Below are positions 238 to 12,438 of a stretch of 12,438 bases of DNA, piece by piece. The stretch lies in NCBI GenBank assembly GCA_964487115.1, contig CAZAPD010000079.1, forward strand, positions 1 to 12,438. Reading direction: 5' to 3'. Position 1 is the first letter of the stretch; every line of letters starts with the position of its first letter. The notes below the pieces were generated by a model. The model was not told where the DNA came from. It did no database searches and worked only from the letters and a program-made list of their open reading frames with translations. This DNA is from an uncultured Thermococci archaeon (lineage in GTDB: Archaea; Methanobacteriota_B; Thermococci; Thermococcales; Thermococcaceae). The position numbers and the translations under genes are program-made.

Positions 238-247
238 AATTAAAACT
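237..247 (+). repeat. 11-bp direct repeat AAATTAAAACT, left copy
   Basis: Identical to 7718-7728 and spans the lrp stop codon. Confidence 0.6.
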
Positions 248-749
248 TGATTTTGAATGACTTATACCATGCTTTTGGACTGCCGATCGCAGGATATACC
301 ATATACCTTTCAACAGCGTTGTTGTTTCTTAGGAATTTGTCTATATGATATTTCAGCTTTTCATTGTTGCTCTCAAGGAATCTGAGAAGAACGTCGTAAT
401 CTCCACCGAGATATTCCGTCACCTCGTATATCCTCGGATTATTAATGGCCTCTGTCAGGAACTCGTTTATCTCCTCTATCTTTGCGTGTTGATTCAGCTT
501 TACCATTACATCTGCATATGCTACATCCGCTGCCCTTAAAAGTAAAAGTCCGATGATCTGCAGATATCCCTTCTCCTGAAGTCTCATCCTGCGACGTCGA
601 ACGGTGGTTATAGACACTCCAATCCTCTTTGCTATCTCAGTGTCACTCATCCTGCCGTTTTCTCTCAATGCCTGATATATTTTAAGGTCAATGTCATCTA
701 ATTTATTCTTGAAAATGCTCTTCAGTACTAAAACTTCCTCATCTTCCAT
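240..749 (-). CDS. Lrp/AsnC (feast/famine) family transcriptional regulator
   Basis: N-terminal HTH LDDIDLKIYQALRENGRMSDTEIAKRIGVSITTVRRRRMRLQEKG and a C-terminal RAM-like effector domain (IYEVTEYLGGDYDVLLR). Start is ATG 749 (GAAGGA upstream) or ATG 764 (possibly leaderless). Confidence 0.92.
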   Translation of the reverse strand: MEDEEVLVLKSIFKNKLDDIDLKIYQALRENGRMSDTEIAKRIGVSITTVRRRRMRLQEKGYLQIIGLLLLRAADVAYADVMVKLNQHAKIEEINEFLTEAINNPRIYEVTEYLGGDYDVLLRFLESNNEKLKYHIDKFLRNNNAVERYMVYPAIGSPKAWYKSFKIKF

Positions 750-787
750 GTTAATTCCTTCCATGTGAATAATTTCGCCATTAATCT

Positions 788-803
788 AAAATAAATTTTT
801 CGC
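788..803 (-). promoter_or_regulatory. Putative BRE/TATA promoter of the Lrp/AsnC gene
   Basis: Minus strand reads GCGAAAAA-TTTATTTT, with the TATA-like element 24-31 nt upstream of ATG 764, which is typical archaeal spacing. Confidence 0.55.
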
Positions 804-844
804 ATTTTTGAAATTCTAAAATTAATTTCATCCAAATATGTTCT

Positions 845-859
845 AAAAAGATTAAAAGG
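845..859 (-). terminator. Putative oligo-T terminator of the hyuA-hyuB-peptidase-permease operon
   Basis: CCTTTTAATCTTTTT on the minus strand starting 5 nt after the permease stop codon. Confidence 0.45.
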
Positions 860-864
860 AGACC

Positions 865-2181
865 TCAGGAGAGCCAGTGCTTTGGTGTAAACTGATCCGG
901 AGCTACTGAGGCTTTTATCCTCATCAGGACATAATAAACAATGCCTGTTAAGATGAATGTCTGTATTGGAGGTATGCCGACAAAATGCTTGTACTGCATA
1001 TAGTATCCAAATATAATGCCGATTGCCAGAGACACAGTTGCTATCCAATTCCAGCCTTCAATGTCCTCCCACTCTTCTTTCCTGAGAATAAAGAAATCCA
1101 CCATTATGATTGCAGCCATTGCTGGGAAGACTATACCAAGGAGCAAGAGGAATTGCATATATTTCCCAAGGATTCCTGCAAGGGCTAAGATTATTCCTAT
1201 CACTGTTAGGGCTGCTGTTGCTACAGCCCTCCCCCTGCCAGTTCTTAGATTAAGCATATTCGAGAGTGCCAGTCCCGGTGTATATACGTTGACTATCTGA
1301 GTTGTCCATTGAGCGATGAACATCATAAAGTAAGCCCAGAACGGATATCCCAGTGCTACCATTACTGCAACAATATCCCATGAACCTACACCTACTGCCA
1401 TTATAGCACCAACGATCATGAGCACAAAGCCCACCATCATTGTTAGTGATGGCATAAGCACTGCATCTTTCCATGTAGGCTTGCACATTCTGCTGTAATC
1501 TGATATCATAACCCACTGACACACGTTGACACCTATTACTGTTGAAACAGCTAAACTCCATGCCATTGCATGTGAAGGCTTCCAGTTAGCTATACCTGCC
1601 ACACCATGAAGTTTTATTGAGAGATAAACACCCAGTCCAAATATAAACAGTCCTATTGGAACCGCTAGATAATCAGTCCACTTTATTGAAGTATAACCTA
1701 TAATTGCTGGAATTGCAAAGATAACTCCAAGTATCAGGGTTATAACTGCCCATGCGGCCCAGTTTGCTTGGTAGTTAATGCCTAAAGCCGCACATATGGC
1801 ATTCCCCATAACTGCAGTTTGAATTCCCCACCATCCAAGACCCATCAAAATCACTGCAAGTGCTATTAAAGTCCTTGCTTGAAGACTGCCGAAAGCCTGT
1901 CGTGCTATAACTGTCGATGGTCTCCCAACTTTTGCACCAATGTATGCTTGGAGTGCATCTCCTATCCATGTGATAAAAAGGGCCAGAGCCACAACCGCTG
2001 CAACTTCTTTAACACTTAAACCTTTGACGAGTCCTGCTCCTACCATTACAACAGGAAGACAGAACTCGACTCCTGCATAGACTACTGCTGGACTTATCCA
2101 TGATTCTCTGCTTGTCAGTGGCACCATGTCTATAGCCTTATCCTTTTCTTCAGATGCCTTCAACTTTTCTACTACTCCCAA
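865..2181 (-). CDS. NCS1-family (cytosine/hydantoin permease-like) nucleobase:cation symporter
   Basis: 438 aa with about 12 hydrophobic segments. NCS1 hallmarks include IGAKVGRPSTVIARQAFGS, GWWGIQT, ISDYSR and QWTTQIVNVY. TTG start with a strong SD GGAGGTG. Confidence 0.9.
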   Translation of the reverse strand: MGVVEKLKASEEKDKAIDMVPLTSRESWISPAVVYAGVEFCLPVVMVGAGLVKGLSVKEVAAVVALALFITWIGDALQAYIGAKVGRPSTVIARQAFGSLQARTLIALAVILMGLGWWGIQTAVMGNAICAALGINYQANWAAWAVITLILGVIFAIPAIIGYTSIKWTDYLAVPIGLFIFGLGVYLSIKLHGVAGIANWKPSHAMAWSLAVSTVIGVNVCQWVMISDYSRMCKPTWKDAVLMPSLTMMVGFVLMIVGAIMAVGVGSWDIVAVMVALGYPFWAYFMMFIAQWTTQIVNVYTPGLALSNMLNLRTGRGRAVATAALTVIGIILALAGILGKYMQFLLLLGIVFPAMAAIIMVDFFILRKEEWEDIEGWNWIATVSLAIGIIFGYYMQYKHFVGIPPIQTFILTGIVYYVLMRIKASVAPDQFTPKHWLS

Positions 2182-2212
2182 ATTTCACACCTCCATCAAG
2201 TTATACGCGTAA

Positions 2213-3307
2213 TTAAAGAGAGAGAAATTCTCTTTCAGCTTTTGTTAATCTCTCCCCTCTTCCATTCAACACCGCTACATCATCCTCAATCCGAATTCCA
2301 AATTTTCCGGGAAGATAAATCCCCGGCTCAATCGTGAAGACCATACCCTCGGCGAGAATTGTAGAATTTCCTGGGGATATATATGGTTCCTCATGCACAT
2401 CTAAACCTAAGCCGTGACCGGTTCTGTGGGTAAAGCATTCACCATAACCAGCTCTCACTATATACCCCCTTGCCGTCCGGTCAACATCTCCAGCAGTTAC
2501 GCCTTCTCTCACAGTTTGAAACGCCTTCTCTTGGGCTTCTTTCACTATTTCATACACTGTCTTCGCTTCTTCAGAAGGTTCACCAACAAACACTGTTCTT
2601 GTTATGTCAGAGCAGTAACCCCTGTATTTAGCTCCATAATCGAGGACAATAACATCTCCCTGCCTGATTTTCCGATCGGTTGGTCTGTGATGAGGATTCG
2701 CACCGTTTGGTCCTGATGCTACAATTGGTTCAAAAGAGACTCCATCCGCACCGAGGCTTTTTACGAGATACTCAATCCATGCCGCAAGCTCCTTCTCGCT
2801 TCTACCCTCGATTCCTTCTTCTAAGAGATTGTAGAAGACTTTATCGACAATTTTTGCCGCTTTTTTAAGGAGTTTGACCTCTTCTTCACTTTTAATGACT
2901 CTGAGTCCTGAGAGGAGCGAGTTGAGAGTATCAAGCTTGTAGCTCTGCAGAAATTCAGCCTTCAAAAGAGTTCCAACTGGCATGGTGTCATCCACCAGTA
3001 GTCTCCCCTTCTCAGGGAAATTCTTAGCCAGAATGCTGGCAAACAGCGCGTAGGGATTCTCGCCATCCCGCCACAGAAAAACTCTGCCAAGCTCCCAGCT
3101 GTCGAGCTCATTTTCATACAGTTGGGGTGCTATTATACTCGGCTCCTCTTCCGCCGGAATAAGCAGAAGAAAAAGCCTCTCAAGTGATCCAAGAGGGTTT
3201 ATTCCTGTGAGATAATAGAAATTGGAGCCGGGGGCAACAAGAGCCCCCACAGCCTCCTCTTTTCTCATAACCTCCTGAAGTTTTGAAATTCTTTTCCTGT
3301 AGTCCAT
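2213..3307 (-). CDS. M24B metallopeptidase (Xaa-Pro dipeptidase/aminopeptidase P family)
   Basis: Creatinase/prolidase N-domain (NFYYLTG) plus pita-bread domain with all five metal ligands: LDYG, SDITRT, GHGLG, TIEPG, RIEDD. Also NPHH and VHEEP. The start (ATG 3307 or GTG 3310) overlaps the hyuB TGA; SD GGAGG at 3316-3320. Confidence 0.93.
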   Translation of the reverse strand: MDYRKRISKLQEVMRKEEAVGALVAPGSNFYYLTGINPLGSLERLFLLLIPAEEEPSIIAPQLYENELDSWELGRVFLWRDGENPYALFASILAKNFPEKGRLLVDDTMPVGTLLKAEFLQSYKLDTLNSLLSGLRVIKSEEEVKLLKKAAKIVDKVFYNLLEEGIEGRSEKELAAWIEYLVKSLGADGVSFEPIVASGPNGANPHHRPTDRKIRQGDVIVLDYGAKYRGYCSDITRTVFVGEPSEEAKTVYEIVKEAQEKAFQTVREGVTAGDVDRTARGYIVRAGYGECFTHRTGHGLGLDVHEEPYISPGNSTILAEGMVFTIEPGIYLPGKFGIRIEDDVAVLNGRGERLTKAEREFLSL

Positions 3308-5040
3308 CACCCCTGCCTCCTCTGTTTTCTTAATGATTTCGTCTTTTCCCAGTCAATCTCCATCCGCTGGGGATCAATTACTACGCCGTAGACTTCCTTC
3401 GCAACTTCAAGAGAAATCAGGTCATTCCTGTAATCCTCCAAGACAAGCTCCGGATCCCTCTCTAAGGGATCACCCCACCCTCCACCTCCAGAAGTCCTGA
3501 TGCTTATTAGGTCTCCTTTCCTCAAAAGCTCAGCTGAGATTCTGCGTATTTCCTCTCCCTTTCCATCTCTGTAAACAATGACCCTGTTACCGGGTCCGGG
3601 GAGTCCCCCCTCAACACCCCAAGGCGGAAAGTCGTGCCTTCCAACCTGAATCGTAACCAATGCCTGACTGTTTAGGATTCTGTACTCTCTAATGACACCA
3701 AAGCCACCTCTGTGCTTTCCATGACCAACTCCATCCTCAACGTTCAGCATGTATCTCTCCACGAGAATCGGGAAGTTTCGCTCGTAGACTTCAGATGAAG
3801 CTATGTATGTTTCGCCATCTCCACACGCAACGAGACCGCTCGTTCCATCCATGTCGTAACCCGCACCCCATCCTCCCGGCTGGGGTTCGACTATAGCAAA
3901 AGGTTCACCTGTCCGGTCATTTATACCGCCGACTATCGTTGCTATTATTGAGAGGAAATGTCCTGCGGTTAGCTTTTCCGGAACGTGAGGAGCTAAGGCC
4001 TTCCAGACTAAGTCTGTTGCAAAGGCTATGGCTTCCCAGTCCGTTGACGTTGGAGCAGGCTTTATCGGGTGGAATATAGTTCCTTCAGGAGCTATGACCT
4101 TTAAAGGACTGAAGAACCCGCCATTCGGATAGGCATGGGGATCGGTTATCGCCATGTAGACCTCCCTAACCCCTGAAACTGTTGCCGGATAAGGCGAGTT
4201 TATAGGACTCATTACTTGCTCGGCGCTTCCAGTGAAGTCAACGATAAATTCCTCATCCGTTATTGTGATTTTCGCTCTGACATAAACAGGTTCATCCGTC
4301 CCAGCGATTGAGCTGTCTATGTAATCCTCTGCCTCAAACTCTCCCTTCGGCAGTTCTTTAAGCTTCAGAGAAGCATATTTTCTGCCATCATCAAGAAGTT
4401 TTTTCATTGCCAGCAAAACATTATCAACACCGTATTTCTCAATAAGAGTTTGTATCCTCTTCTCTGCGACCTTCATCGATGCTGCCTGAGCTTCCATATC
4501 TCCCAAGGTGTACTCAGGCAACCTTGAGTTTTCAAGGATTATGTCTATTACATCCTTGTTGGGCTTTCCCTCCTTGTAGAGTTTCACGCATGGCAGCTGA
4601 ATTCCCTCCTGATATATCTCAGTGGCATTGGGATTCCAGCTTCCGAAAGCCATACCTCCAACTTCAGTCCAGTGTCCTTTGTTCAGAATCATCCCAATGA
4701 GTTCATCCCTGTAGAAAACTGGAAGAGCCAGCGTTACATCGTTTAAGTGTGTTCCCGATTCGTAGGGCACATTACTCACGATGACGTCCCCTGGATGGAG
4801 ATTGTTCCCCCATTTATCCAGCACTTCCCTGGCAGCAAAGTCCAGAACCCCAGAGAACGCAGGAACACCCGGTGCCTGTGCGATTAAGTTGCCTTTAGAA
4901 TCCGTCATCCCCACGGCAAAATCGAGAACCTCATAGATAACCGGACTCTTGGCAGTTCTTGCAAAGGCTTGGAACATCTCCTCGTTAGCAACTACAAGGC
5001 CATTCTTTATTATCTCCAGGGTAAAGGGATCCACGCTCAT
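3307..5040 (-). CDS. hyuB: Hydantoinase B/5-oxoprolinase-family subunit (metal-binding amidohydrolase subunit of an ATP-dependent lactamase)
   Basis: DPFTLEII N-terminus, SNVPYESGTHLND, HWTEVGG, EIYQEG, DFTGS, GGWGA, GKHRGG and SGGGGWGDPLERDP motifs. SD AGGAGGTGA lies in the end of hyuA. The symbol denotes the family, not the substrate. Confidence 0.93.
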   Translation of the reverse strand: MSVDPFTLEIIKNGLVVANEEMFQAFARTAKSPVIYEVLDFAVGMTDSKGNLIAQAPGVPAFSGVLDFAAREVLDKWGNNLHPGDVIVSNVPYESGTHLNDVTLALPVFYRDELIGMILNKGHWTEVGGMAFGSWNPNATEIYQEGIQLPCVKLYKEGKPNKDVIDIILENSRLPEYTLGDMEAQAASMKVAEKRIQTLIEKYGVDNVLLAMKKLLDDGRKYASLKLKELPKGEFEAEDYIDSSIAGTDEPVYVRAKITITDEEFIVDFTGSAEQVMSPINSPYPATVSGVREVYMAITDPHAYPNGGFFSPLKVIAPEGTIFHPIKPAPTSTDWEAIAFATDLVWKALAPHVPEKLTAGHFLSIIATIVGGINDRTGEPFAIVEPQPGGWGAGYDMDGTSGLVACGDGETYIASSEVYERNFPILVERYMLNVEDGVGHGKHRGGFGVIREYRILNSQALVTIQVGRHDFPPWGVEGGLPGPGNRVIVYRDGKGEEIRRISAELLRKGDLISIRTSGGGGWGDPLERDPELVLEDYRNDLISLEVAKEVYGVVIDPQRMEIDWEKTKSLRKQRRQG

Positions 5041-5044
5041 TCAA

Positions 5045-7117
5045 TCACCTCCTATAAATGACGATGTTTCCATACTTATCCCTCACAAGCTCCTGATTTT
5101 CGAGAACGAGAACTGTTGAAGTCGGATCTTCAAGAATAGCAGGTCCATTGATTTTCTTTTCTATCGGTATCTTCCTTCTGTCAAACACCGGCATGTTGAT
5201 GAAATCCCCATGTATGAAGACATTTCTGTACTCTCTGATGGCGTCCTTTACAGAAAGATTCTCCTCTTTGATCTCCCGTATAGCCGGCCGCTTGACTTTC
5301 ACAACCCCAACTCCGTGGAAGTTCACTATCTCAACCGGGCTGTCCGGGAGTCTGAAACTGTATGCTCTCTCATGATACACATGGAATCTCTCAATGATAT
5401 GTGGTATGTCTTTCTCCTCAATAGTTCCAGTCTTCACCGGCACTTTGACCGTGTGCTCCTGACCCTTGTACCTCATGTCGGCGTAGTGGAATATCACCAG
5501 CTCTTTGGCGCTGAGGCCTTCCTCCTCTTCAAAGATCCTGGTTAGTCTTTTGTCGACCTCGGAATAGGTTTCATTGATGGCCTCGATGTTTTCAACCTCA
5601 ACCTTAAGAACGTTCGTTGTTATCACATCGTGCCGTATATCCGTGAGCAGCATTCCCCACGCCGAGAAAACTCCAGGTGGTATGGTTGGGATGATTATCT
5701 TTTTAATCTCCAAATCCTCAGCTATGAATGGAGCAAACATCGGACCGGAACCACCGTGAGCTATTAGAGAGAATTCCCTGGGATCATAACCTTTCTGAAC
5801 CGATATCAATCTTATTGCATTTGCCGCGTTTTCATTTGCGATTTTAACGATTCCTTCAGCGGCTTCCTCAACAGAAATGTTGTAGTAATCAGCTATCTTC
5901 TTCACGGCTTTTACTGCCAGATCTCTGTATATCTTCATCTCACCACCGAGGAGATATTCAGGGTTAATGAGGCCGTTTATTACGTATGCATCGGTAACTG
6001 TTGGCTCTTTACCTCCTTTCCCGTAGCAAGCTGGCCCGGGATCAGCCCCCATAGCCTTAGGTCCAACCCTAAGGTTGCCAACTTCATCAATCCACGCTAT
6101 GCTTGTGCCACCATTTCCAACTTCTTCGATCTCAATCACAGGAACCTTCACTGGATATCCCGGATTGAACTTATCCCGCCCAACAAAATACTCACTGTGA
6201 ACTTTTGGCGTTAGATTTTCAACGAGACTGGCCTTCGTAGTTGTACTGCCTCCATCAAGAATTATCACATTTCTTTCATTCAACAATTCAGCTATCGCTA
6301 TACCCCCTATAACACCAGCAATCGGACCGGACTCTATGGAGTATATCGGGAACTCTTTGACAAAATCAAACGATGCCATTCCGCCGTTGGACAGCATGGA
6401 GAAGAAGGATCCCTCATATCCCATGCCCCGTATTTCTCGCTCAAGTATTGAAAGATAGCGTGTCATTTTGGGTTTAACAAAAGCATTAAGAACCGCCGTA
6501 CTGGTGCGTTCGTATTCACCCCACTCTCTGGTGATTTCATGAGCCAGCGTTACAGGAATATCCTCCTTTCCCTCTTCTTTCAGAACCTCTTTTACTATCT
6601 CCCCAGCCTCGATTTCATGCTCTGGATTTGCATATGAATTGAGGAAACTTATGCATATCGATTCAACACCCTCTTTAAGGAGTCTCCTTACAGCTTTCCG
6701 CACTTCTTCTGCATTTAATGGCTTGAGCTCAGTACCATCACCCAAGACCCTTTCATCAATCTCAAGACTGAGATATCGGGGGACAAAGGGCTTGGGTTTT
6801 TTGTATCTGAAATTATACATATCCCTCCTATTTGCTCTCTGGAGTTCTAAGATGTCCCTGTGACCCCAAGTAGTCAGCAGCCCGACTTTGGCCCCATCCC
6901 TTGTTATGATGGAATTTATAACGAGAGTCTGGCCGTGAATAACCATAGTTACCTTGGACATGTCTAACTTGCTCTTCTTCACGGTGTTCAGAACACCTAT
7001 AGATGGCTCGGACGGTGTGGTTTCTCCTTTTACCCAAACAAAATCGCCGCTTTCATCATTATATCCAACCAGATCTGTGAAAGCACCACCGATATCAACA
7101 CCCAGCCGATACCCCAT
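5045..7117 (-). CDS. hyuA: Hydantoinase A/5-oxoprolinase-family subunit (ATP-binding subunit)
   Basis: 690 aa from ATG 7117 (SD AGGAGG at 7125-7130). Motifs GVDIGGAFTD, EYERTSTAVLNA, ESGPIAG, ADPGPACYGKGGKEPTVTDA, VFSAWG and DMRYKGQ. The 39-codon upstream extension in the ORF track runs through the AT-rich promoter. Confidence 0.94.
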   Translation of the reverse strand: MGYRLGVDIGGAFTDLVGYNDESGDFVWVKGETTPSEPSIGVLNTVKKSKLDMSKVTMVIHGQTLVINSIITRDGAKVGLLTTWGHRDILELQRANRRDMYNFRYKKPKPFVPRYLSLEIDERVLGDGTELKPLNAEEVRKAVRRLLKEGVESICISFLNSYANPEHEIEAGEIVKEVLKEEGKEDIPVTLAHEITREWGEYERTSTAVLNAFVKPKMTRYLSILEREIRGMGYEGSFFSMLSNGGMASFDFVKEFPIYSIESGPIAGVIGGIAIAELLNERNVIILDGGSTTTKASLVENLTPKVHSEYFVGRDKFNPGYPVKVPVIEIEEVGNGGTSIAWIDEVGNLRVGPKAMGADPGPACYGKGGKEPTVTDAYVINGLINPEYLLGGEMKIYRDLAVKAVKKIADYYNISVEEAAEGIVKIANENAANAIRLISVQKGYDPREFSLIAHGGSGPMFAPFIAEDLEIKKIIIPTIPPGVFSAWGMLLTDIRHDVITTNVLKVEVENIEAINETYSEVDKRLTRIFEEEEGLSAKELVIFHYADMRYKGQEHTVKVPVKTGTIEEKDIPHIIERFHVYHERAYSFRLPDSPVEIVNFHGVGVVKVKRPAIREIKEENLSVKDAIREYRNVFIHGDFINMPVFDRRKIPIEKKINGPAILEDPTSTVLVLENQELVRDKYGNIVIYRR

Positions 7118-7200
7118 ATTTTCGCCTCCTGAATTTTTGATGTTTAAATTTTTCATAATATATGCCCAAATTACATACAAATACGAAAATATGTTAATAT

Positions 7201-7217
7201 TATTTAAATATTTTTGG
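7201..7217 (-). promoter_or_regulatory. Putative BRE/TATA promoter of the hyuA operon
   Basis: Minus strand reads CCAAAAATA-TTTAAATA. A second candidate, GAAAAA-TTTAAACA (7154-7141), would place the start site downstream of the SD, so it is less likely. Confidence 0.5.
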
Positions 7218-7306
7218 ACAAAATTTAACTTCAAATGTTATGGGAGATGCAGTAAAATCAGTTGTTGAAGCTAAATTTATGCATTTATTTGAGTTAAAAC
7301 TTAACA

Positions 7307-7322
7307 CATAACCCTTTTATAG
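7307..7322 (+). promoter_or_regulatory. Putative BRE/TATA promoter of the cupin gene
   Basis: CATAACCC-TTTTATAG, with SD GGGAGG at 7355-7360 ahead of ATG 7370. Confidence 0.5.
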
Positions 7323-7369
7323 AACCAAATTTGACAAAAACTTGAAATTCGGATGGGAGGTAAATAGTA

Positions 7370-7693
7370 ATGGTAGAGGTATTCAATTTTAACAAAGAAT
7401 GGGAAAAGAGTCTTGGACGAGCAGTGAAGGTCATTGACATGGATGAAAAAATTCAAGCCGGAATACTTACAATGCCTCCCCATACCCGACTTCCCGAGAA
7501 AGGATTCAGCATTCACAAAGAGTATCATGAGTTTGCATATATTATCGAGGGTGAGGTTACATTGGTGACAGATAGCGGAGAATTCACTGCAAAAAGTGGA
7601 GAATTCATATATAACGAACCCAACACTCCTCATTATACTGTGAACAGAGAGGATAAGCCAGCTAAAGTTCTGTGGATGCTTGTTAGGATCTGA
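7370..7693 (+). CDS. Monocupin (cupin_2-type) protein
   Basis: 107 aa with cupin motif 1 (GFSIHKEYHEFAYIIEG) and motif 2 (GEFIYNEPNTPHYTVN). Good SD, and divergent from hyuA. Confidence 0.88.
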   Translation: MVEVFNFNKEWEKSLGRAVKVIDMDEKIQAGILTMPPHTRLPEKGFSIHKEYHEFAYIIEGEVTLVTDSGEFTAKSGEFIYNEPNTPHYTVNREDKPAKVLWMLVRI

Positions 7694-7717: not shown

Positions 7718-7728
7718 AAATTAAAACT
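7718..7728 (+). repeat. 11-bp direct repeat AAATTAAAACT, right copy
   Basis: Identical to 237-247 and spans the idsA stop codon. Confidence 0.6.
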
Positions 7729-8752
7729 CTCTCTCTACAAGAAACTCGGCCAGCAGCTCCAAATCTTTCCTTGCCTCGCTTTCAGGAAGCACTTTCAGAG
7801 CCTCGTTCGCCTCCCTGACGAGGTTCTTAGCGTAGTGAGCAGCGTAATCTATGCTACCATATTTTTTGAGAAGTTCAATGGCTTTGGCAACCTCCTCCTT
7901 CATCTTATCATCGTGGATAAGCGCATCCCCCTTTGCATCCCCAGCATACTTGCCGAAGACCTGCAGGAACTCGGTCTTGTCCTTCTCGCTCGCATTGTCA
8001 AAGAAATGGCTGACTATTAAGGTTTTTTTGCCCTTCCGTATATCGCTTCCCACAGGCTTTCCAAGCTTTTTCTCGTCCGCTATAAGGTCAAGTACATCAT
8101 CCCATATCTGGAAGGCTATTCCGACGTTCCTACCCCACTTCGACAGGGCTTGAATGTACTCCTCACTGTCCGTTCCAACTATGGCACCTATCCTTGCTGA
8201 ACCGTCAAAGAGTGCCCCTGTCTTACCGCTTATCATTTTAAGATACTCTCCAACACTTACCTCCTCTTTCGTCTCAAAGTCTATGTCCATGGCTTGACCT
8301 TCACAGAGTTCGTTTGATGTTTTTGCCATAACATCGAGAATTCTAACGACTTTTGAAGGTTCTACCGGCGTCTTTGCTATAGCTTCAAAGACCTTTGAAA
8401 AGAGCAGATCTCCAGCAAGGATTGCCATATTGACTCCCCAAACCTTATGCACTGTAGGTCTTCCCCGACGGAGCTCGTCCATATCCATGATGTCATCGTG
8501 AACGAGAGAGTAGTTGTGCAGGAGTTCAACCGCTGCCGCTGGGTACAGAGCCTTTTCAGGATCACCCCCAACAGCTTCCGCCGCCCTGAGGACAACAAAC
8601 GGTCTTACCCGCTTCCCCCCGGCGAGCGGATAATGTCTTACTGCATCATACAGCTCTGTAGGTTCTTTTTCAGGAATAAGCTCAAATATGACTCTGTCAA
8701 CAACCTTCGCTTGCTCTTTTATTCTCTTAAAGAGGACATCGAACTTCCCCAT
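7721..8752 (-). CDS. idsA: Short-chain isoprenyl diphosphate synthase (geranylgeranyl diphosphate synthase)
   Basis: GGKRVRP, FARM YSLVHDDIMD..LRRG with an aromatic residue five positions before the FARM, GQAMD, KT and SARM FQIWDDVLD. SD GAGGTGG overlaps the rnj stop. Start is ATG 8752 or 8755. Confidence 0.96.
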   Translation of the reverse strand: MGKFDVLFKRIKEQAKVVDRVIFELIPEKEPTELYDAVRHYPLAGGKRVRPFVVLRAAEAVGGDPEKALYPAAAVELLHNYSLVHDDIMDMDELRRGRPTVHKVWGVNMAILAGDLLFSKVFEAIAKTPVEPSKVVRILDVMAKTSNELCEGQAMDIDFETKEEVSVGEYLKMISGKTGALFDGSARIGAIVGTDSEEYIQALSKWGRNVGIAFQIWDDVLDLIADEKKLGKPVGSDIRKGKKTLIVSHFFDNASEKDKTEFLQVFGKYAGDAKGDALIHDDKMKEEVAKAIELLKKYGSIDYAAHYAKNLVREANEALKVLPESEARKDLELLAEFLVEREF

Positions 8753-8761
8753 CATACCACC

Positions 8762-10084
8762 TCACATTATTTCAACAGAGTACCCGTTCCTCGATACAAA
8801 GACGTCCCTTCCTATTAAATACCCTTCTTCTTCAGCAAGTTCTGCATAATGGGTTAGCATCCTGAAATCCCCGTGAGCAGGAACGATATTCTCTGGGTTG
8901 AGAATCCTGACCAGATAACGGTGATCCTCCCTTGAGGCGTGTCCGGATACATGCAAGTCTTTAATCATTCTCACACCTTTCATTTTAAGCTTTGTCTCTA
9001 ATGCATATCTTTGAGCGATATTAAGAGGATTTGGTATAACCCCTGCAGAAAACACAACAGTATCCTCTTTACCGATATTATAGAGCTCTCCATTGGCCAT
9101 TCTCGTCAGAACTGCCCCAGGCTCACCCTGGTGGCCCGTTACTATAAGCAGGTAATTCTCTCTCGCCCCGGCAACTTCCTTAAGAACCTTTTTGATAGCA
9201 TTAGGGCTCCTTAGAACCCTCGAACCCTTCATTTTTATAAGGCCAAGCTGTTTAGCCATTCCGGTATATTTTGCAAGTGAGCGGCCTATTAACACTGCTT
9301 GCCTGCCCATGGCATTTGAAACCTCAATCAGCTCCTGAAGCCTTGAGATATGGGAAGCAAATGTAGTTGCTATGAGTCCCTTCTCCTCCATTCCCTCATA
9401 GAGAAAGAAATCCTCAAGGAGCATCTTTGCAACAGCTTCACTGGGTGTCTTTGTCGGTTGAGCAACACGGGTGGATTCCGGAATGAGAATTCTGACTCCT
9501 TCCTGTCCGAGCTCCTTCAGACGCTTATAATCAGGTTTTTCCCCAAGGGGATTGTTGTTATCAAATTTGTAGTCACAGGCATAAACAACGGCTCCTTCGG
9601 GAGTGTGGACAACGACGATTGCTGACTGGGGAATTGAATGGGTTATCTGAATAAACTCTATCGCAAGATTCTCACTAACTTGCACAATCTCACCGTAGTG
9701 AGTTTCATACATCGGATTCTTAACCTCAAAATACTGCTCACTTTTCACCTCACTCTTTGCGAGCTTTATCGTGTAGGGCGTACCGTATATCGGGACGTCT
9801 GGGTAGTGAGGAGCCAGCTTCGCGACGGCTCCAATGTGATCAAGGTGGCCATGAGAAAATGCTATTGCAACGACTTTTTTATCCCTGATAGGCCTATCAT
9901 CCGGTATTGCTCCAAGCTTCTGGAGCTCCTTTGTTGGAAAGTGCTGAATGCTAACATCCTCATGGATTAAAACTCTGTCCAGCCTGATTCCCATGTCGAT
10001 TATAACAACCTCCCCGTTGTATTCAACGGCAGTCATGTTCTTCCCTACTTCCTCGTAACCGCTAAGCGTGTAGATTTTTATCAT
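8762..10084 (-). CDS. rnj: Archaeal ribonuclease J (beta-CASP metallo-beta-lactamase, 5'-3' exoribonuclease)
   Basis: GYEEVGKNM, SHGHLDHIG (HxHxDH), THSIP, DYKFD, ESTR, FASHISR, TGHQGEP, HVSGHAS and PAHG motifs. Conserved position between fni and idsA. Confidence 0.95.
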   Translation of the reverse strand: MIKIYTLSGYEEVGKNMTAVEYNGEVVIIDMGIRLDRVLIHEDVSIQHFPTKELQKLGAIPDDRPIRDKKVVAIAFSHGHLDHIGAVAKLAPHYPDVPIYGTPYTIKLAKSEVKSEQYFEVKNPMYETHYGEIVQVSENLAIEFIQITHSIPQSAIVVVHTPEGAVVYACDYKFDNNNPLGEKPDYKRLKELGQEGVRILIPESTRVAQPTKTPSEAVAKMLLEDFFLYEGMEEKGLIATTFASHISRLQELIEVSNAMGRQAVLIGRSLAKYTGMAKQLGLIKMKGSRVLRSPNAIKKVLKEVAGARENYLLIVTGHQGEPGAVLTRMANGELYNIGKEDTVVFSAGVIPNPLNIAQRYALETKLKMKGVRMIKDLHVSGHASREDHRYLVRILNPENIVPAHGDFRMLTHYAELAEEEGYLIGRDVFVSRNGYSVEIM

Positions 10085-10100
10085 ATCTTATCCTCCTTTT

Positions 10101-10132
10101 TGGCCTCTAAGCTCATAATGAGCATAAGGCCA
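10101..10132 (-). promoter_or_regulatory. Imperfect inverted repeat / predicted hairpin in the rnj 5' UTR
   Basis: Plus strand reads TGGCCT-CTAA-GCTCAT-A-ATGAGC-ATA-AGGCCA, ending 2 nt upstream of the SD AAGGAGGA (10098-10091). Confidence 0.6.
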
Positions 10133-10157
10133 CGTTGAGTAATAGTTGAGTGATGGG

Positions 10158-10165
10158 TTTAAAAA
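10158..10165 (-). promoter_or_regulatory. Putative TATA box for rnj-idsA
   Basis: TTTTTAAA on the minus strand, predicting a start site near 10133-10135. The BRE is weak. Confidence 0.5.
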
Positions 10166-10179
10166 GGTGTGCATCCATG

Positions 10180-10196
10180 AAGAGAGAAAAGATAAA
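10180..10196 (-). terminator. Putative pyrimidine-rich terminator after fni
   Basis: TTTATCTTTTCTCTCTT directly after the fni TGA. Confidence 0.4.
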
Positions 10197-11315
10197 TCAG
10201 CGCGCCCCAAGGTACGCCAGTAGGTTAATCCTCTGCTCGAGCCATTCCTTCGTGAAGCCGGTAACAACAAGTGGAACCTTCCTCAGCTCTTCGACGTTTT
10301 TAGCCCCAACGAGAAACATGGCATTTCGTATCTCCTCGATGTAACGCCTGAGGACTTTGAGGACCCCCTCCACGTCCCCCTTGACTGCAGGTTTTAGTAG
10401 CGGTAAGGCCACGCCGGCAAAAGTAGCCCCCATGGCTAAAGCCTTTGCCATCGTTATGCCGTCACGCATTCCGCCGGTGGCTATTATCGGAAGGTCCGTG
10501 GCGGAGCGAACCTCGGCGACGCTTATGGCCGTCTTTATCCCCCAGTCCCAGAATTTTAACGCCAAGTTTCTGCCCAGCTCATCCTTCGCGCGGTAGTACT
10601 CGACGGCGCTCCAGCTGGTTCCGCCGAGGCCGCCGACATCGATGGCATCAATTCCTATGCTCTCAAGCCTTATCGCCACCTCCTTGGAGACGCCAGCACC
10701 GGTTTCCTTTGCTATTATTGGATAGGGAAACTCAGCTTTGAGCTCGGCTAAAGCTTTCAGCACTCCGCGGTACTGTGTGTCACCCTCCGGCTGGACGCTC
10801 TCCTGGAGAGGGTTGAGGTGTATCGCCAGAGCGTCAGCCTGAATCATCTCAACCGCTTTGAGGGCCTCATCCATACCGTAGCGCCCCGGCATCGTCTCGG
10901 CAAACTGGGGAGCGCCGAGGTTGCCGACGAGGAAGACATCAGAAGCAACGTCGCGCACGTAGTAGCTCTCCCACGTTTCCGGCTTCCTTATCATTGCCCT
11001 CTGACTGCCGACACCCATCGGTATGTTCAGCTCCTGAGCGGCCTTCGCCAAAGTCTTATTGATTTTGCCTGCGAGCTGAGAGCCCTTGGTTCCCCCGGTC
11101 ATTCCCGCTATGAAAATCGGGTAGTCGAACTTCCGGCCAAGGAACTCGACACTTAGGTCTATTTCGTCCTTATCAATCTCGGGAAGAGATGTGTGAATAA
11201 AATAAACATCATCAAAGCCATTGCTTACATGAGCTTCTACCTGACGTTTGAGACAGTGCTCTATATGCTCAAATTTCCTGATAATTGTGAGCTCTTCCCT
11301 ATCGAATTCCTCCAT
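10197..11315 (-). CDS. fni: Type 2 (FMN-dependent) isopentenyl-diphosphate delta-isomerase
   Basis: RKFEHI, AGMTGG, GVGSQR, NLG, HLNPLQE, KETGAG, GGTSW and TGGMRDG motifs. ATG 11315 follows the SD GGGTGAT; the ORF-track GTG at 11324 is part of that SD. Confidence 0.96.
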
Positions 11316-11394
11316 CCATATCACCCGAAGAAAAAATTAGCAGAGAGAGTTAAGAGGTTTTTGGGTTCAATTTTTGAATGTTAAAAGTTAAGGT

Positions 11395-11409: not shown

Positions 11410-11454
11410 GTATCATGACACTTATTTTACTAACTTTGCTCTGAGGTGTTTGCA

Positions 11455-12438
11455 GTGTTGAATATCTCTAATAATTCGGTAGAAATAGGGAAAAAGATGC
11501 TGATTATTGACTTGACTCATGAAAAAATTATCAAGAAAAAGATTAAGCCCGAAACCGTAAAACTGTATCTCGGGGGAAGAGGCTTCAACTCAAAGGTCCT
11601 CTTTGATATGGTACCCGGAAGAATAGATCCCATGAGCCCCAAGAATATCCTCGCACTGAGCAACGGAACCTTCGCTGGAACTGCACTTCCGATGACCAGC
11701 AGGCTTCACATAAGCACCCTCTCGCCACTCTCCGGAATTCTTGGGGACGGTAACGCCGGCGGTGAGTTCTCTGCAATGCTGAAATTTGCCGGTTATGAGC
11801 AGGTTATCTTAATCGGAAGGGCCAAAAAACCGAAGTACATCTTCATCGAAGACGATAACGTCGAGATAAGAGACGCAGGAGAACTCTGGGGTCTGACCAC
11901 TGGTGAAACAGTTGACTGGCTGAGAGACGAACACGGTGACGAGGTCAGTGTTGCAGGAATTGGTCCGGCGGGAGAGAACCTCGTGCGTTTCGCCACGACG
12001 ATAGTGGACAAGTACCACTCCGGGGCAAGGGGAAGCGGCGCCGTGTGGGGTTCGAAGAACCTCAAGGCAGTAGCGGTCATCGGGACTGGGGAGGTTGAGC
12101 CGGCCGATCCTGAGAGATTCTACGAGATGGTCCGGGAGGACATAGAATACTTCAACCGGAACGAGTTCGTCAAAAGAATCTACTCCATCATCGGGACGCA
12201 TTACGGGCTGATACAATGGTACCCAAGCTGGAAGTACTTCCAGATTCCGCTCAGCGCCAATGAGCTGCCTGTTGGGCTGAGACCCCAGGATCTGGCAGAG
12301 TACGAGGTGGGAAGGACTCAATGCTTCTCCTGTCCGCTTGCATGTAAGGACGTTTACTATCTGCCGAGCACGGATGAATACGGTACTGCGAGCGAATTCG
12401 AGTCAATATACGCCCTCGGCTCCAACAACTGCATAACC
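11455..12438 (+). CDS. Tungsten-containing aldehyde:ferredoxin oxidoreductase (AOR/WOR) family protein, 5' partial (continues past the window)
   Basis: Hand translation gives 328 open codons from GTG 11455 (alternative ATG 11497): GKKMLIIDLT, YLGGRG, IDPMSPKN, SPLSGILGDGNAGG, LKFAGY, LWG, IGPAGENLVRFA, GAVWGSKNLKAVAV, the Fe-S motif CFSCPLAC (starting 12322) and EFES. It is missing from the ORF track because no stop falls in the window. Confidence 0.93.
   Translation, partial: MLNISNNSVEIGKKMLIIDLTHEKIIKKKIKPETVKLYLGGRGFNSKVLFDMVPGRIDPMSPKNILALSNGTFAGTALPMTSRLHISTLSPLSGILGDGNAGGEFSAMLKFAGYEQVILIGRAKKPKYIFIEDDNVEIRDAGELWGLTTGETVDWLRDEHGDEVSVAGIGPAGENLVRFATTIVDKYHSGARGSGAVWGSKNLKAVAVIGTGEVEPADPERFYEMVREDIEYFNRNEFVKRIYSIIGTHYGLIQWYPSWKYFQIPLSANELPVGLRPQDLAEYEVGRTQCFSCPLACKDVYYLPSTDEYGTASEFESIYALGSNNCIT

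Follow-up and report, generated by a model that had tools for sequence, protein, structure and literature searches.

A conserved HyuA/HyuB-prolidase gene cassette in a Thermococcaceae genome as a candidate system for diketopiperazine salvage

Here we describe a block of six genes on a 12,438-nucleotide contig of an uncultured Thermococcaceae archaeon (assembly GCA_964487115.1, contig CAZAPD010000079.1; the whole stretch is referred to as the window), encoding a HyuA/HyuB enzyme pair, a prolidase-type Xaa-Pro peptidase of family M24B, an NCS1 permease, an Lrp/AsnC-type regulator and a cupin. The block is a real, conserved but patchily spread gene system, and sequence comparison places its HyuA/HyuB pair in a distinct branch with an aromatic pocket signature of its own. 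We consider it probable that these conserved genes form a catabolic cassette for salvage of 2,5-diketopiperazines (cyclic dipeptides), chiefly cyclo(Xaa-Pro), which would be imported, opened at their only N-H amide to Xaa-Pro, and split. Cyclic dipeptides, which occur in abundance and arise when peptides are heated, withstand peptidases. A 2013 study (PMC3852281) calls it unclear which enzymes begin their breakdown, and no gene assignment to diketopiperazine breakdown was found in the literature searched, subscription papers and bioRxiv supplements lying outside that search. Genomes, contigs, and collected loci are numbered with the prefixes G, C, and L, respectively; the window is contig C79 of genome G000. 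Its features are as follows.

240..764, minus strand: Lrp/AsnC-type regulator (PF13412/PF13404), cassette-linked subfamily, the block being its predicted target
865..2181, minus strand: NCS1-family permease (PF02133), CodB-like but divergent, predicted importer
2213..3307, minus strand: M24B Xaa-Pro dipeptidase of prolidase type (Creatinase_N and M24 domains), an extra copy tied to the cassette
3307..5040, minus strand: HyuB (PF02538), predicted metal-binding ring-opening subunit of an ATP-dependent lactamase
5045..7117, minus strand: HyuA (PF05378/PF01968/PF19278), actin-like ATPase subunit of 690 amino acids (aa)
7118..7369, no strand: divergent intergenic region with archaeal BRE/TATA-like boxes, recognised from sequence
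7370..7693, plus strand: small cupin (PF07883) of a cassette-linked subfamily

Profile matches and junction sequence recovered all six open reading frames (ORFs) with the families and spacing given in the first-pass annotation of this DNA. The three junctions are likewise as described there: hyuA and hyuB are separated by 4 nucleotides (nt; TGA-TTGA-ATG), hyuB and the peptidase gene overlap in TGATG, and 31 nt, including a GGAGGTG ribosome site, precede the permease gene. The hyuA start is most likely the ATG at 7117 behind GGAGG, giving 690 aa as in relatives, rather than the TTG at 7234 of the longest ORF. The order hyuA-hyuB-peptidase-NCS1-Lrp recurs in six loci (L007, L010, L050, L051, L052, and L061), which argues that the block is more than chance; the divergent cupin is present in L007, L050, L051, L052, and L061, and the L010 contig ends before the cupin position. 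With a GC content of 0.443, the block resembles the genome (0.432) and gives no sign of recent transfer. In L050 (G078), a YfcC/DcuC-type transporter gene and an ArgE/DapE-type M20 hydrolase gene separate the NCS1 gene from the Lrp gene (L050:15366-18066), and hyuA is divided between two reading frames (L050:8892-10962).

Relatives were drawn from named genomes (35 loci), metagenomes (the best 80 of 550), 301 sampled genomes of a second archaeal phylum, and plasmids. Of 97 Thermococcaceae genomes, 8 had a HyuB match, which in 7 belonged to this branch, and the second phylum yielded 25 matches in 22 genomes at 48-76% identity, all others being at most 39% identical. From that phylum, 20 branch regions and 40 control regions were taken near rank order, a few on short contigs or in repeated genomes being skipped, and L041 was added as a control. 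In total, 141 branch loci were compared with 41 control loci, duplicates included and the controls coming from one phylum and one bacterium; a dereplicated set (90% identity, at least 4 kb on both sides) held 40 branch and 28 control loci. HyuB proteins of the branch are 45-96% identical to that of the window, versus at most 39% for controls, and form one group in a quick-search tree (Shimodaira-Hasegawa-like approximate likelihood ratio test 100, stem 1.07). No characterised member was found in this branch, the comparison standing without the HyuB sequence of Pseudomonas NS671, and the best 120 of 2306 HyuB homologs bore automatic names only. The system is not restricted to archaea or hyperthermophiles: the arrangement hyuA-hyuB-Xaa-Pro peptidase is found again on bacterial plasmids (42-48% identity), the peptidase being carried by Novosphingobium and Qingshengfaniella members of the wider branch. 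Two or three HyuA/HyuB pairs per locus are present in L110, L111, L112, L157, and L059, some with an ECF-type importer.

Neighbouring genes separate the branch from its controls. Conservation of the peptidase beside this HyuAB clade, which the first-pass annotation had set as a test of its proposal, was found: all seven Thermococcaceae branch carriers have an M24B gene directly behind hyuB, six of them as a second copy of the subtype, and 38 of the 141 branch loci have an M24B neighbour versus none of the 41 control loci. Those seven cassette peptidases are the seven best peptidase matches in Thermococcaceae, and 30 of the 38 M24B neighbours lie within 400 nt and are co-oriented. An unrelated M19 dipeptidase takes the place of M24B in 13 branch loci, mostly of one lineage (0/41 in controls), and M29-like genes are found in 15 branch loci versus no control locus; only one ArgE/DapE-type M20 gene was seen in the branch loci. 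Raw counts for other partners (again out of 141 and 41) were 67 versus 1 for the Dpp/Opp binding protein, 53 versus 0 for hydantoin-racemase-type genes, 25 versus 0 for the cupin, 19 versus 0 for Lrp, and 14 versus 0 for NCS1. At 90% dereplication, M24B stood at 15/40 versus 0/28, the Dpp/Opp binding protein at 25/40 versus 1/28, the hydantoin-racemase type at 21/40 versus 0/28, and any of M24B, M19, or Dpp at 33/40 versus 1/28, the last being 9/13 versus 0/19 at 70%. Control loci have SSF, Liv-type, or MFS importers instead, and an arylmalonate-decarboxylase-type gene in 9 of 41; a Pfam search of 113 of 129 cluster representatives found no M24, M19, or M20 peptidase within three genes of control hyuAB, and one NCS1.

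HyuA and HyuB are, from their sequences, members of the ATP-dependent lactamase (hydantoinase/oxoprolinase) family with intact catalytic residues. HyuA has three hydantoinase-A domains over curated cut-offs, its best PDB matches being 7HK5 and 6YRA_A, and its phosphate and adenosine motifs DIGGAFTD, DGGST, and GADPGP correspond to the family motifs DxGGTxTD, DxGGT, and GxxPGP, with both catalytic Asp kept; the DIGGAFTD variant is present in 23 of 35 branch HyuA sequences, and GADPGP is intact. HyuB, the only copy found in a genome search, scores 567 bits against PF02538. Residues D40, H98, D101, and H123 align with the zinc ligands of CapB and are invariant in 38 of 38 dereplicated branch sequences, and an AlphaFold model confirms the fold, with active-site loops at a predicted local distance difference test score (pLDDT) below 50. 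Pocket positions, defined as those lining the CapB pocket and mapped through pairwise alignment, are W135 (37/38), W335 (37/38), F362 (35/38), P386 (38/38), and D408 (37/38) in the branch; in 29 controls each is mostly different, commonly I/M, V/L, S/C, T, and M, respectively. CapAB of Pseudomonas jessenii (6YRA; PMC8453981, PMC6061476) and OplAB of P. putida resemble the pair in being two-subunit ATP-dependent lactamases, in fold (template-modelling score 0.83 for the HyuB structure model versus 6YRA_B), and in the Asp-His-Asp-His metal site; however, identity to CapAB is about 30%, the branch pocket has Trp/Trp/Phe/Asp where CapB has small hydrophobic residues, and hyuAB of the window is followed by a dipeptidase gene where CapAB is followed by a transaminase. 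Assignment as CapAB itself was rejected, as the scores were 534 and 290 bits against NCBIfam equivalog cut-offs of 1000 and the hydrophobic CapB pocket is not shared.

The cassette peptidase keeps all five M24B metal ligands (D223, D234, H298, E327, and E341). Two further PepQ-like M24B genes elsewhere in the genome are 53% and 39% identical to it, and in the M24B tree the Thermococcaceae cassette copies group together, apart from the other copies of this genome. Identification as the housekeeping PepQ was discarded (NF040821 score 268 of 630 bits; 39% identity to the PepQ-like copy). Among Thermococcales prolidases, the cassette enzyme of G079 matches PDB 4RGZ/4FKC without a difference over residues 2-366 and is that crystallised protein. 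The next PDB match of the cassette peptidase is 1WN1/2HOW, which we take to be P. horikoshii PH0974, the nearest assayed subtype. The parts of PMC2814137 that deal with PH0974 describe an X-Pro dipeptidase of broad specificity that lacks aminopeptidase and endopeptidase activity, and term the physiological role of these prolidases unsolved.

Taken together, these genes suggest the following route. The NCS1 permease would import cyclic dipeptides, and HyuA/HyuB would open the ring with ATP, activating only an N-H amide; in the mechanism proposed for the family, as outlined in PMC8453981, the lactim form of the amide is phosphorylated in the A subunit and hydrolysed at the metal of the B subunit. 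In cyclo(Xaa-Pro) the single N-H amide is Pro-CO-NH-Xaa, and its opening would yield Xaa-Pro, the substrate class of prolidases, which may be why M24B is the commonest peptidase partner. The M24B peptidase would then split Xaa-Pro into amino acids for fermentation, and the Lrp protein may sense substrate or product. In relatives, rings epimerised by heat would be corrected by a two-cysteine epimerase, with a Dpp/Opp system in place of NCS1.

Several loci of the branch offer pointers to the substrate. Proline dehydrogenase is encoded in L057, L118, L121, L125, and L240, and trans-4-hydroxyproline and cis-3-hydroxyproline dehydratases pass NCBIfam cut-offs in L160 and L130. A plasmid of Parageobacillus thermoglucosidasius C56-YS93 carries a member of the same branch (48%) in the order racemase-MFS-hyuA-hyuB-cupin-Xaa-Pro peptidase-pruA-proline dehydrogenase; in the relevant passage of PMC4593210 this cluster is described from annotation as one for proline/hydroxyproline capture and metabolism, and that passage names no cyclic dipeptide and reports no experiment. 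A glycyl-radical trans-4-hydroxyproline dehydratase and its activase stand beside hyuAB in L127, L130, and L160, the last in an archaeal genome (G098). Proline diketopiperazines epimerise on heating. The racemases of branch loci keep both cysteines in 49 of 49 cases, and their PDB matches include allantoin racemase and OpaE, which, according to a section of PMC7530659, epimerises D-Phe within a ring of peptide origin. The first-pass annotation had argued from a missing hydantoin racemase and from NCS1 as importer; the block indeed has no racemase and no carbamoylase, but 53 of the 141 branch loci have a racemase-type gene and several are encoded elsewhere in this genome, and NCS1, although present in the window, is a minority partner (14/141, versus 67/141 for the Dpp/Opp ATP-binding cassette (ABC) system). 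The earlier interpretation as a whole is retained in part, in that the peptidase is conserved and further partners, among them Dpp/Opp importers, a second dipeptidase family, epimerases, enzymes of proline catabolism, and the cyclodipeptide-oxidase-like genes described below, point to cyclic dipeptides, with those two supporting arguments corrected.

A wider reading, on which we are almost evenly divided with a slight leaning to doubt, is that the HyuAB branch is the diketopiperazine hydrolase, driven by ATP, of archaea and of many bacteria, that it opens cyclo(Xaa-Pro) at a single defined bond, and that it forms one widespread network for the consumption of cyclic dipeptides with epimerases, short-HyuA/DUF917 units, and synthase-less cyclodipeptide-oxidase-like genes, three linked cassettes of which would lie in this genome under paralogous Lrp regulators. 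AlbA-like and AlbB-like genes directly follow hyuB in L128/L129 (one locus present twice), the AlbB-like protein scoring 2.9e-15 against the copy of this genome and only 0.018 against PDB, and the best PDB matches of the AlbA-like/AlbB-like pair on contig C90 of this genome are 8UC3 and 9EXV, a cyclodipeptide oxidase. AlbB-like genes are present in 6 of 7 Thermococcaceae carriers versus 9 of 90 other Thermococcaceae and, with matches of E above 1e-4 dropped, in 6 of 22 branch genomes of the second phylum versus 17 of 279 others. In L097, L106, L139, L155, and L156, the HyuAB branch stands back to back with an Lrp-NCS1-small membrane protein-DUF917-short HyuA-DUF917 unit, an arrangement that links the two systems physically. 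Synthase-less cyclodipeptide-oxidase-like clusters, as treated in parts of PMC11055893, share hydantoin racemases, DUF917, AroM, Dpp/OPT importers, and peptidases, and one such cluster lies on C90; those parts report them in Thermococcus and suggest purine metabolism or biosynthesis, and mention neither a HyuA/HyuB pair nor cyclic dipeptide breakdown.

The C90 cluster (G000:C90 ~62400-80400; L210:4385-19685 and L211:831-4382) comprises a Dpp ABC system, four racemase-family genes, two DUF917 genes, DUF1177, AroM, M29-like genes, OPT, two Lrp genes, and, at its end, the AlbA-like/AlbB-like pair; an M29-like/racemase stretch within it (L210:5804-6804) looks broken or frameshifted. On contig C55 (~29500-40164; L209:5524-16163) a further cassette holds a racemase, an NCS1 paralog (33%), a short HyuA (518 aa), DUF917, and an Lrp paralog (51%), and directly adjoins an arylmalonate-decarboxylase-type gene, an Nramp-like transporter gene, and pxpA-PIN-pxpB-pxpC-like genes.

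The main rival, which we regard as unlikely, is a pyroglutamyl dipeptide, above all pyroglutamyl-proline (pGlu-Pro): HyuAB would open the lactam to give Glu-Pro and the prolidase would split the product. This fits every gene of the window as well as cyclo(Xaa-Pro) does, and the Dpp/Opp partners in addition. The genome has a separate pyroglutamyl peptidase (Pcp) gene; to our knowledge pyroglutamyl peptidase I does not cut pGlu-Pro, which would therefore be a dead end despite that gene. On the other hand, pGlu-Pro leaves both the ring-type epimerase of 53/141 loci and the cyclodipeptide-oxidase-like genes unexplained, and, NCS1 carriers favouring uncharged heterocycles, this anion is unlike their cargo. 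A further point for this rival is that Table 2 of PMC2814137 gives the related P. horikoshii dipeptidase a Glu-Pro activity of 28% of that on Met-Pro.

A hydantoin pathway like hyuABCE of Pseudomonas NS671, acting on 5-substituted or proline-derived hydantoins and having a carbamoylase elsewhere or another amidohydrolase in its role, appears improbable. It would make sense of the two-cysteine racemase-type partner, the NCS1 heterocycle importer, the subunit lengths, which resemble those of NS671 HyuA/HyuB (690/583 aa in a table of PMC8453981), and the D-aminoacylase-like amidohydrolases in 9 loci. However, no nitrilase-type, isochorismatase-type, or HyuC-type carbamoylase was found in the 141 branch loci, no HyuC-type protein passed the TIGR01879 cut-off in the 4/4 Thermococcaceae carriers searched, and the peptidase, unlike creatinase-type enzymes, keeps its five metal ligands. 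N-methylhydantoinase (7HK5, 9H03; 30% identity to 9H03) and NS671 HyuABCE are of the same family, and have in common a racemase-type partner, present in relatives, and a heterocycle importer, but no N-carbamoylase was found beside the branch, which has dipeptidases and peptide ABC importers instead.

We give a low probability to a different cyclic amide as the source of proline or a dipeptide, such as dehydro- or hydroxy-diketopiperazines alone or a lactam not yet known, with sub-branches differing in substrate. Such diversity would agree with the duplicated HyuAB pairs of several loci, the varied importers (ECF, SSF, MFS, and sugar-type ABC), the conserved cupin, whose role is unexplained, and the pocket divergence of bacterial members, but the core pocket is nearly invariant in the 38 dereplicated branch sequences, suggesting one substrate class in the core branch. 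That HyuAB is simply a 5-oxoprolinase acting on pyroglutamate formed by heat, and the peptidase a neighbour serving peptide use in general, is very improbable: pyroglutamate forms readily in hot media and passages of PMC6507225 report ATP-stimulated activity in Sulfolobaceae extracts, but this genome already has pxpA and pxpB over NCBIfam cut-offs followed by a pxpC-like ORF, PxpA is present in 5/5 carriers searched, the candidates given in those passages have 505-513 aa and HyuB proteins of roughly this length group with the controls, separate from the branch, and control loci lack peptidases.

Several points weigh against salvage of cyclo(Xaa-Pro) as the function of the block, the ring opening by HyuAB and its substrate being predictions from gene comparison. 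M24B is missing in the stretch examined from 103 of the 141 branch loci (many are short contigs); the well-flanked L023, L026, L093, and L113 have none of the marker families tested, L026 having an M42 aminopeptidase; and a creatininase-family gene adjoins the M19 group. The window itself has neither an epimerase nor a Dpp system, and no AlbB-like match was found in 16 of 22 branch genomes of the second phylum. Kinship inflates the branch-control contrasts, a single phylum supplied nearly all controls, and the neighbour profiles, derived from branch loci, missed the one control NCS1 that Pfam found. In the wider branch, two plasmid members (L238 and L241; Aminobacter and Paracoccus) lack the peptidase and have a changed pocket, making several substrates likely for the wider branch. 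Lastly, in PMC3852281, cyclo(Asp-Phe) is hydrolysed by crude extracts in phosphate buffer with no apparent addition of ATP, so that opening of such rings need not use ATP, and by its abstract no proline ring is among those cleaved.

The HyuAB family is already known, no cyclic-dipeptide substrate being established for it in the literature searched, and one sentence of a 2018 paper (in PMC6061476) suggests that lactamases or hydrolases of cyclic dipeptides may be encoded by many oxoprolinase-annotated genes. The present analysis adds the comparison with controls, the signature of the pocket, the argument from regiochemistry, the link to cyclodipeptide-oxidase-like genes, and the identity of the crystallised prolidase. 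If the proposed function is correct, many proteins named 'N-methylhydantoinase B' or 'oxoprolinase' would need re-annotation, the crystallised archaeal prolidase would gain a suggested role, and a thermostable catalyst for diketopiperazine removal or opening would become available. With a defined branch, a pocket signature, and tractable hosts (Haloferax volcanii, through pHV4, and Parageobacillus), the question is directly testable. The H. volcanii pHV4 locus (L058:169-10594) reads Dpp ABC-hyuA-hyuB-cupin with a convergent Lrp gene, and has no peptidase or racemase gene in that stretch.

Of the remaining genes of the block, the NCS1 permease scores 57.6 bits against PF02133 (cut-off 23.5) and 158 of 326 bits against the CodB equivalog, below its cut-off, its sole PDB match being CodB 7QOA; in most relatives Dpp/Opp ABC, MFS, or ECF systems stand in its place. 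The Lrp gene is 51% and 44% identical to those of two related cassettes in the same genome, and no Lrp operator could be singled out. Candidate promoters are suggested by BRE/TATA-like boxes at ~7217-7201 towards hyuA and ~7315-7321 towards the cupin, both recognisable in L007, L050, L051, and L052 (the L061 row covered another stretch), and a scan for sigma-70 promoters and terminators, ill-suited to archaea, gave nothing above shuffles. In the cupin, S47, H49, E54, and H88 recur in 90% or more of 26 copies, and comparison with the ESM Atlas returned generic Cupin_2 only. The block is flanked on one side by an isoprenoid/RNase J housekeeping run (7721-11324) and on the other by a gene with a methyltransferase homolog. 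Outside the cassette, an aldehyde:ferredoxin oxidoreductase-family gene (11446-12438, plus strand) is divergent from the IDI-RNase J-geranylgeranyl diphosphate (GGPP) synthase run and runs off the end of the window.

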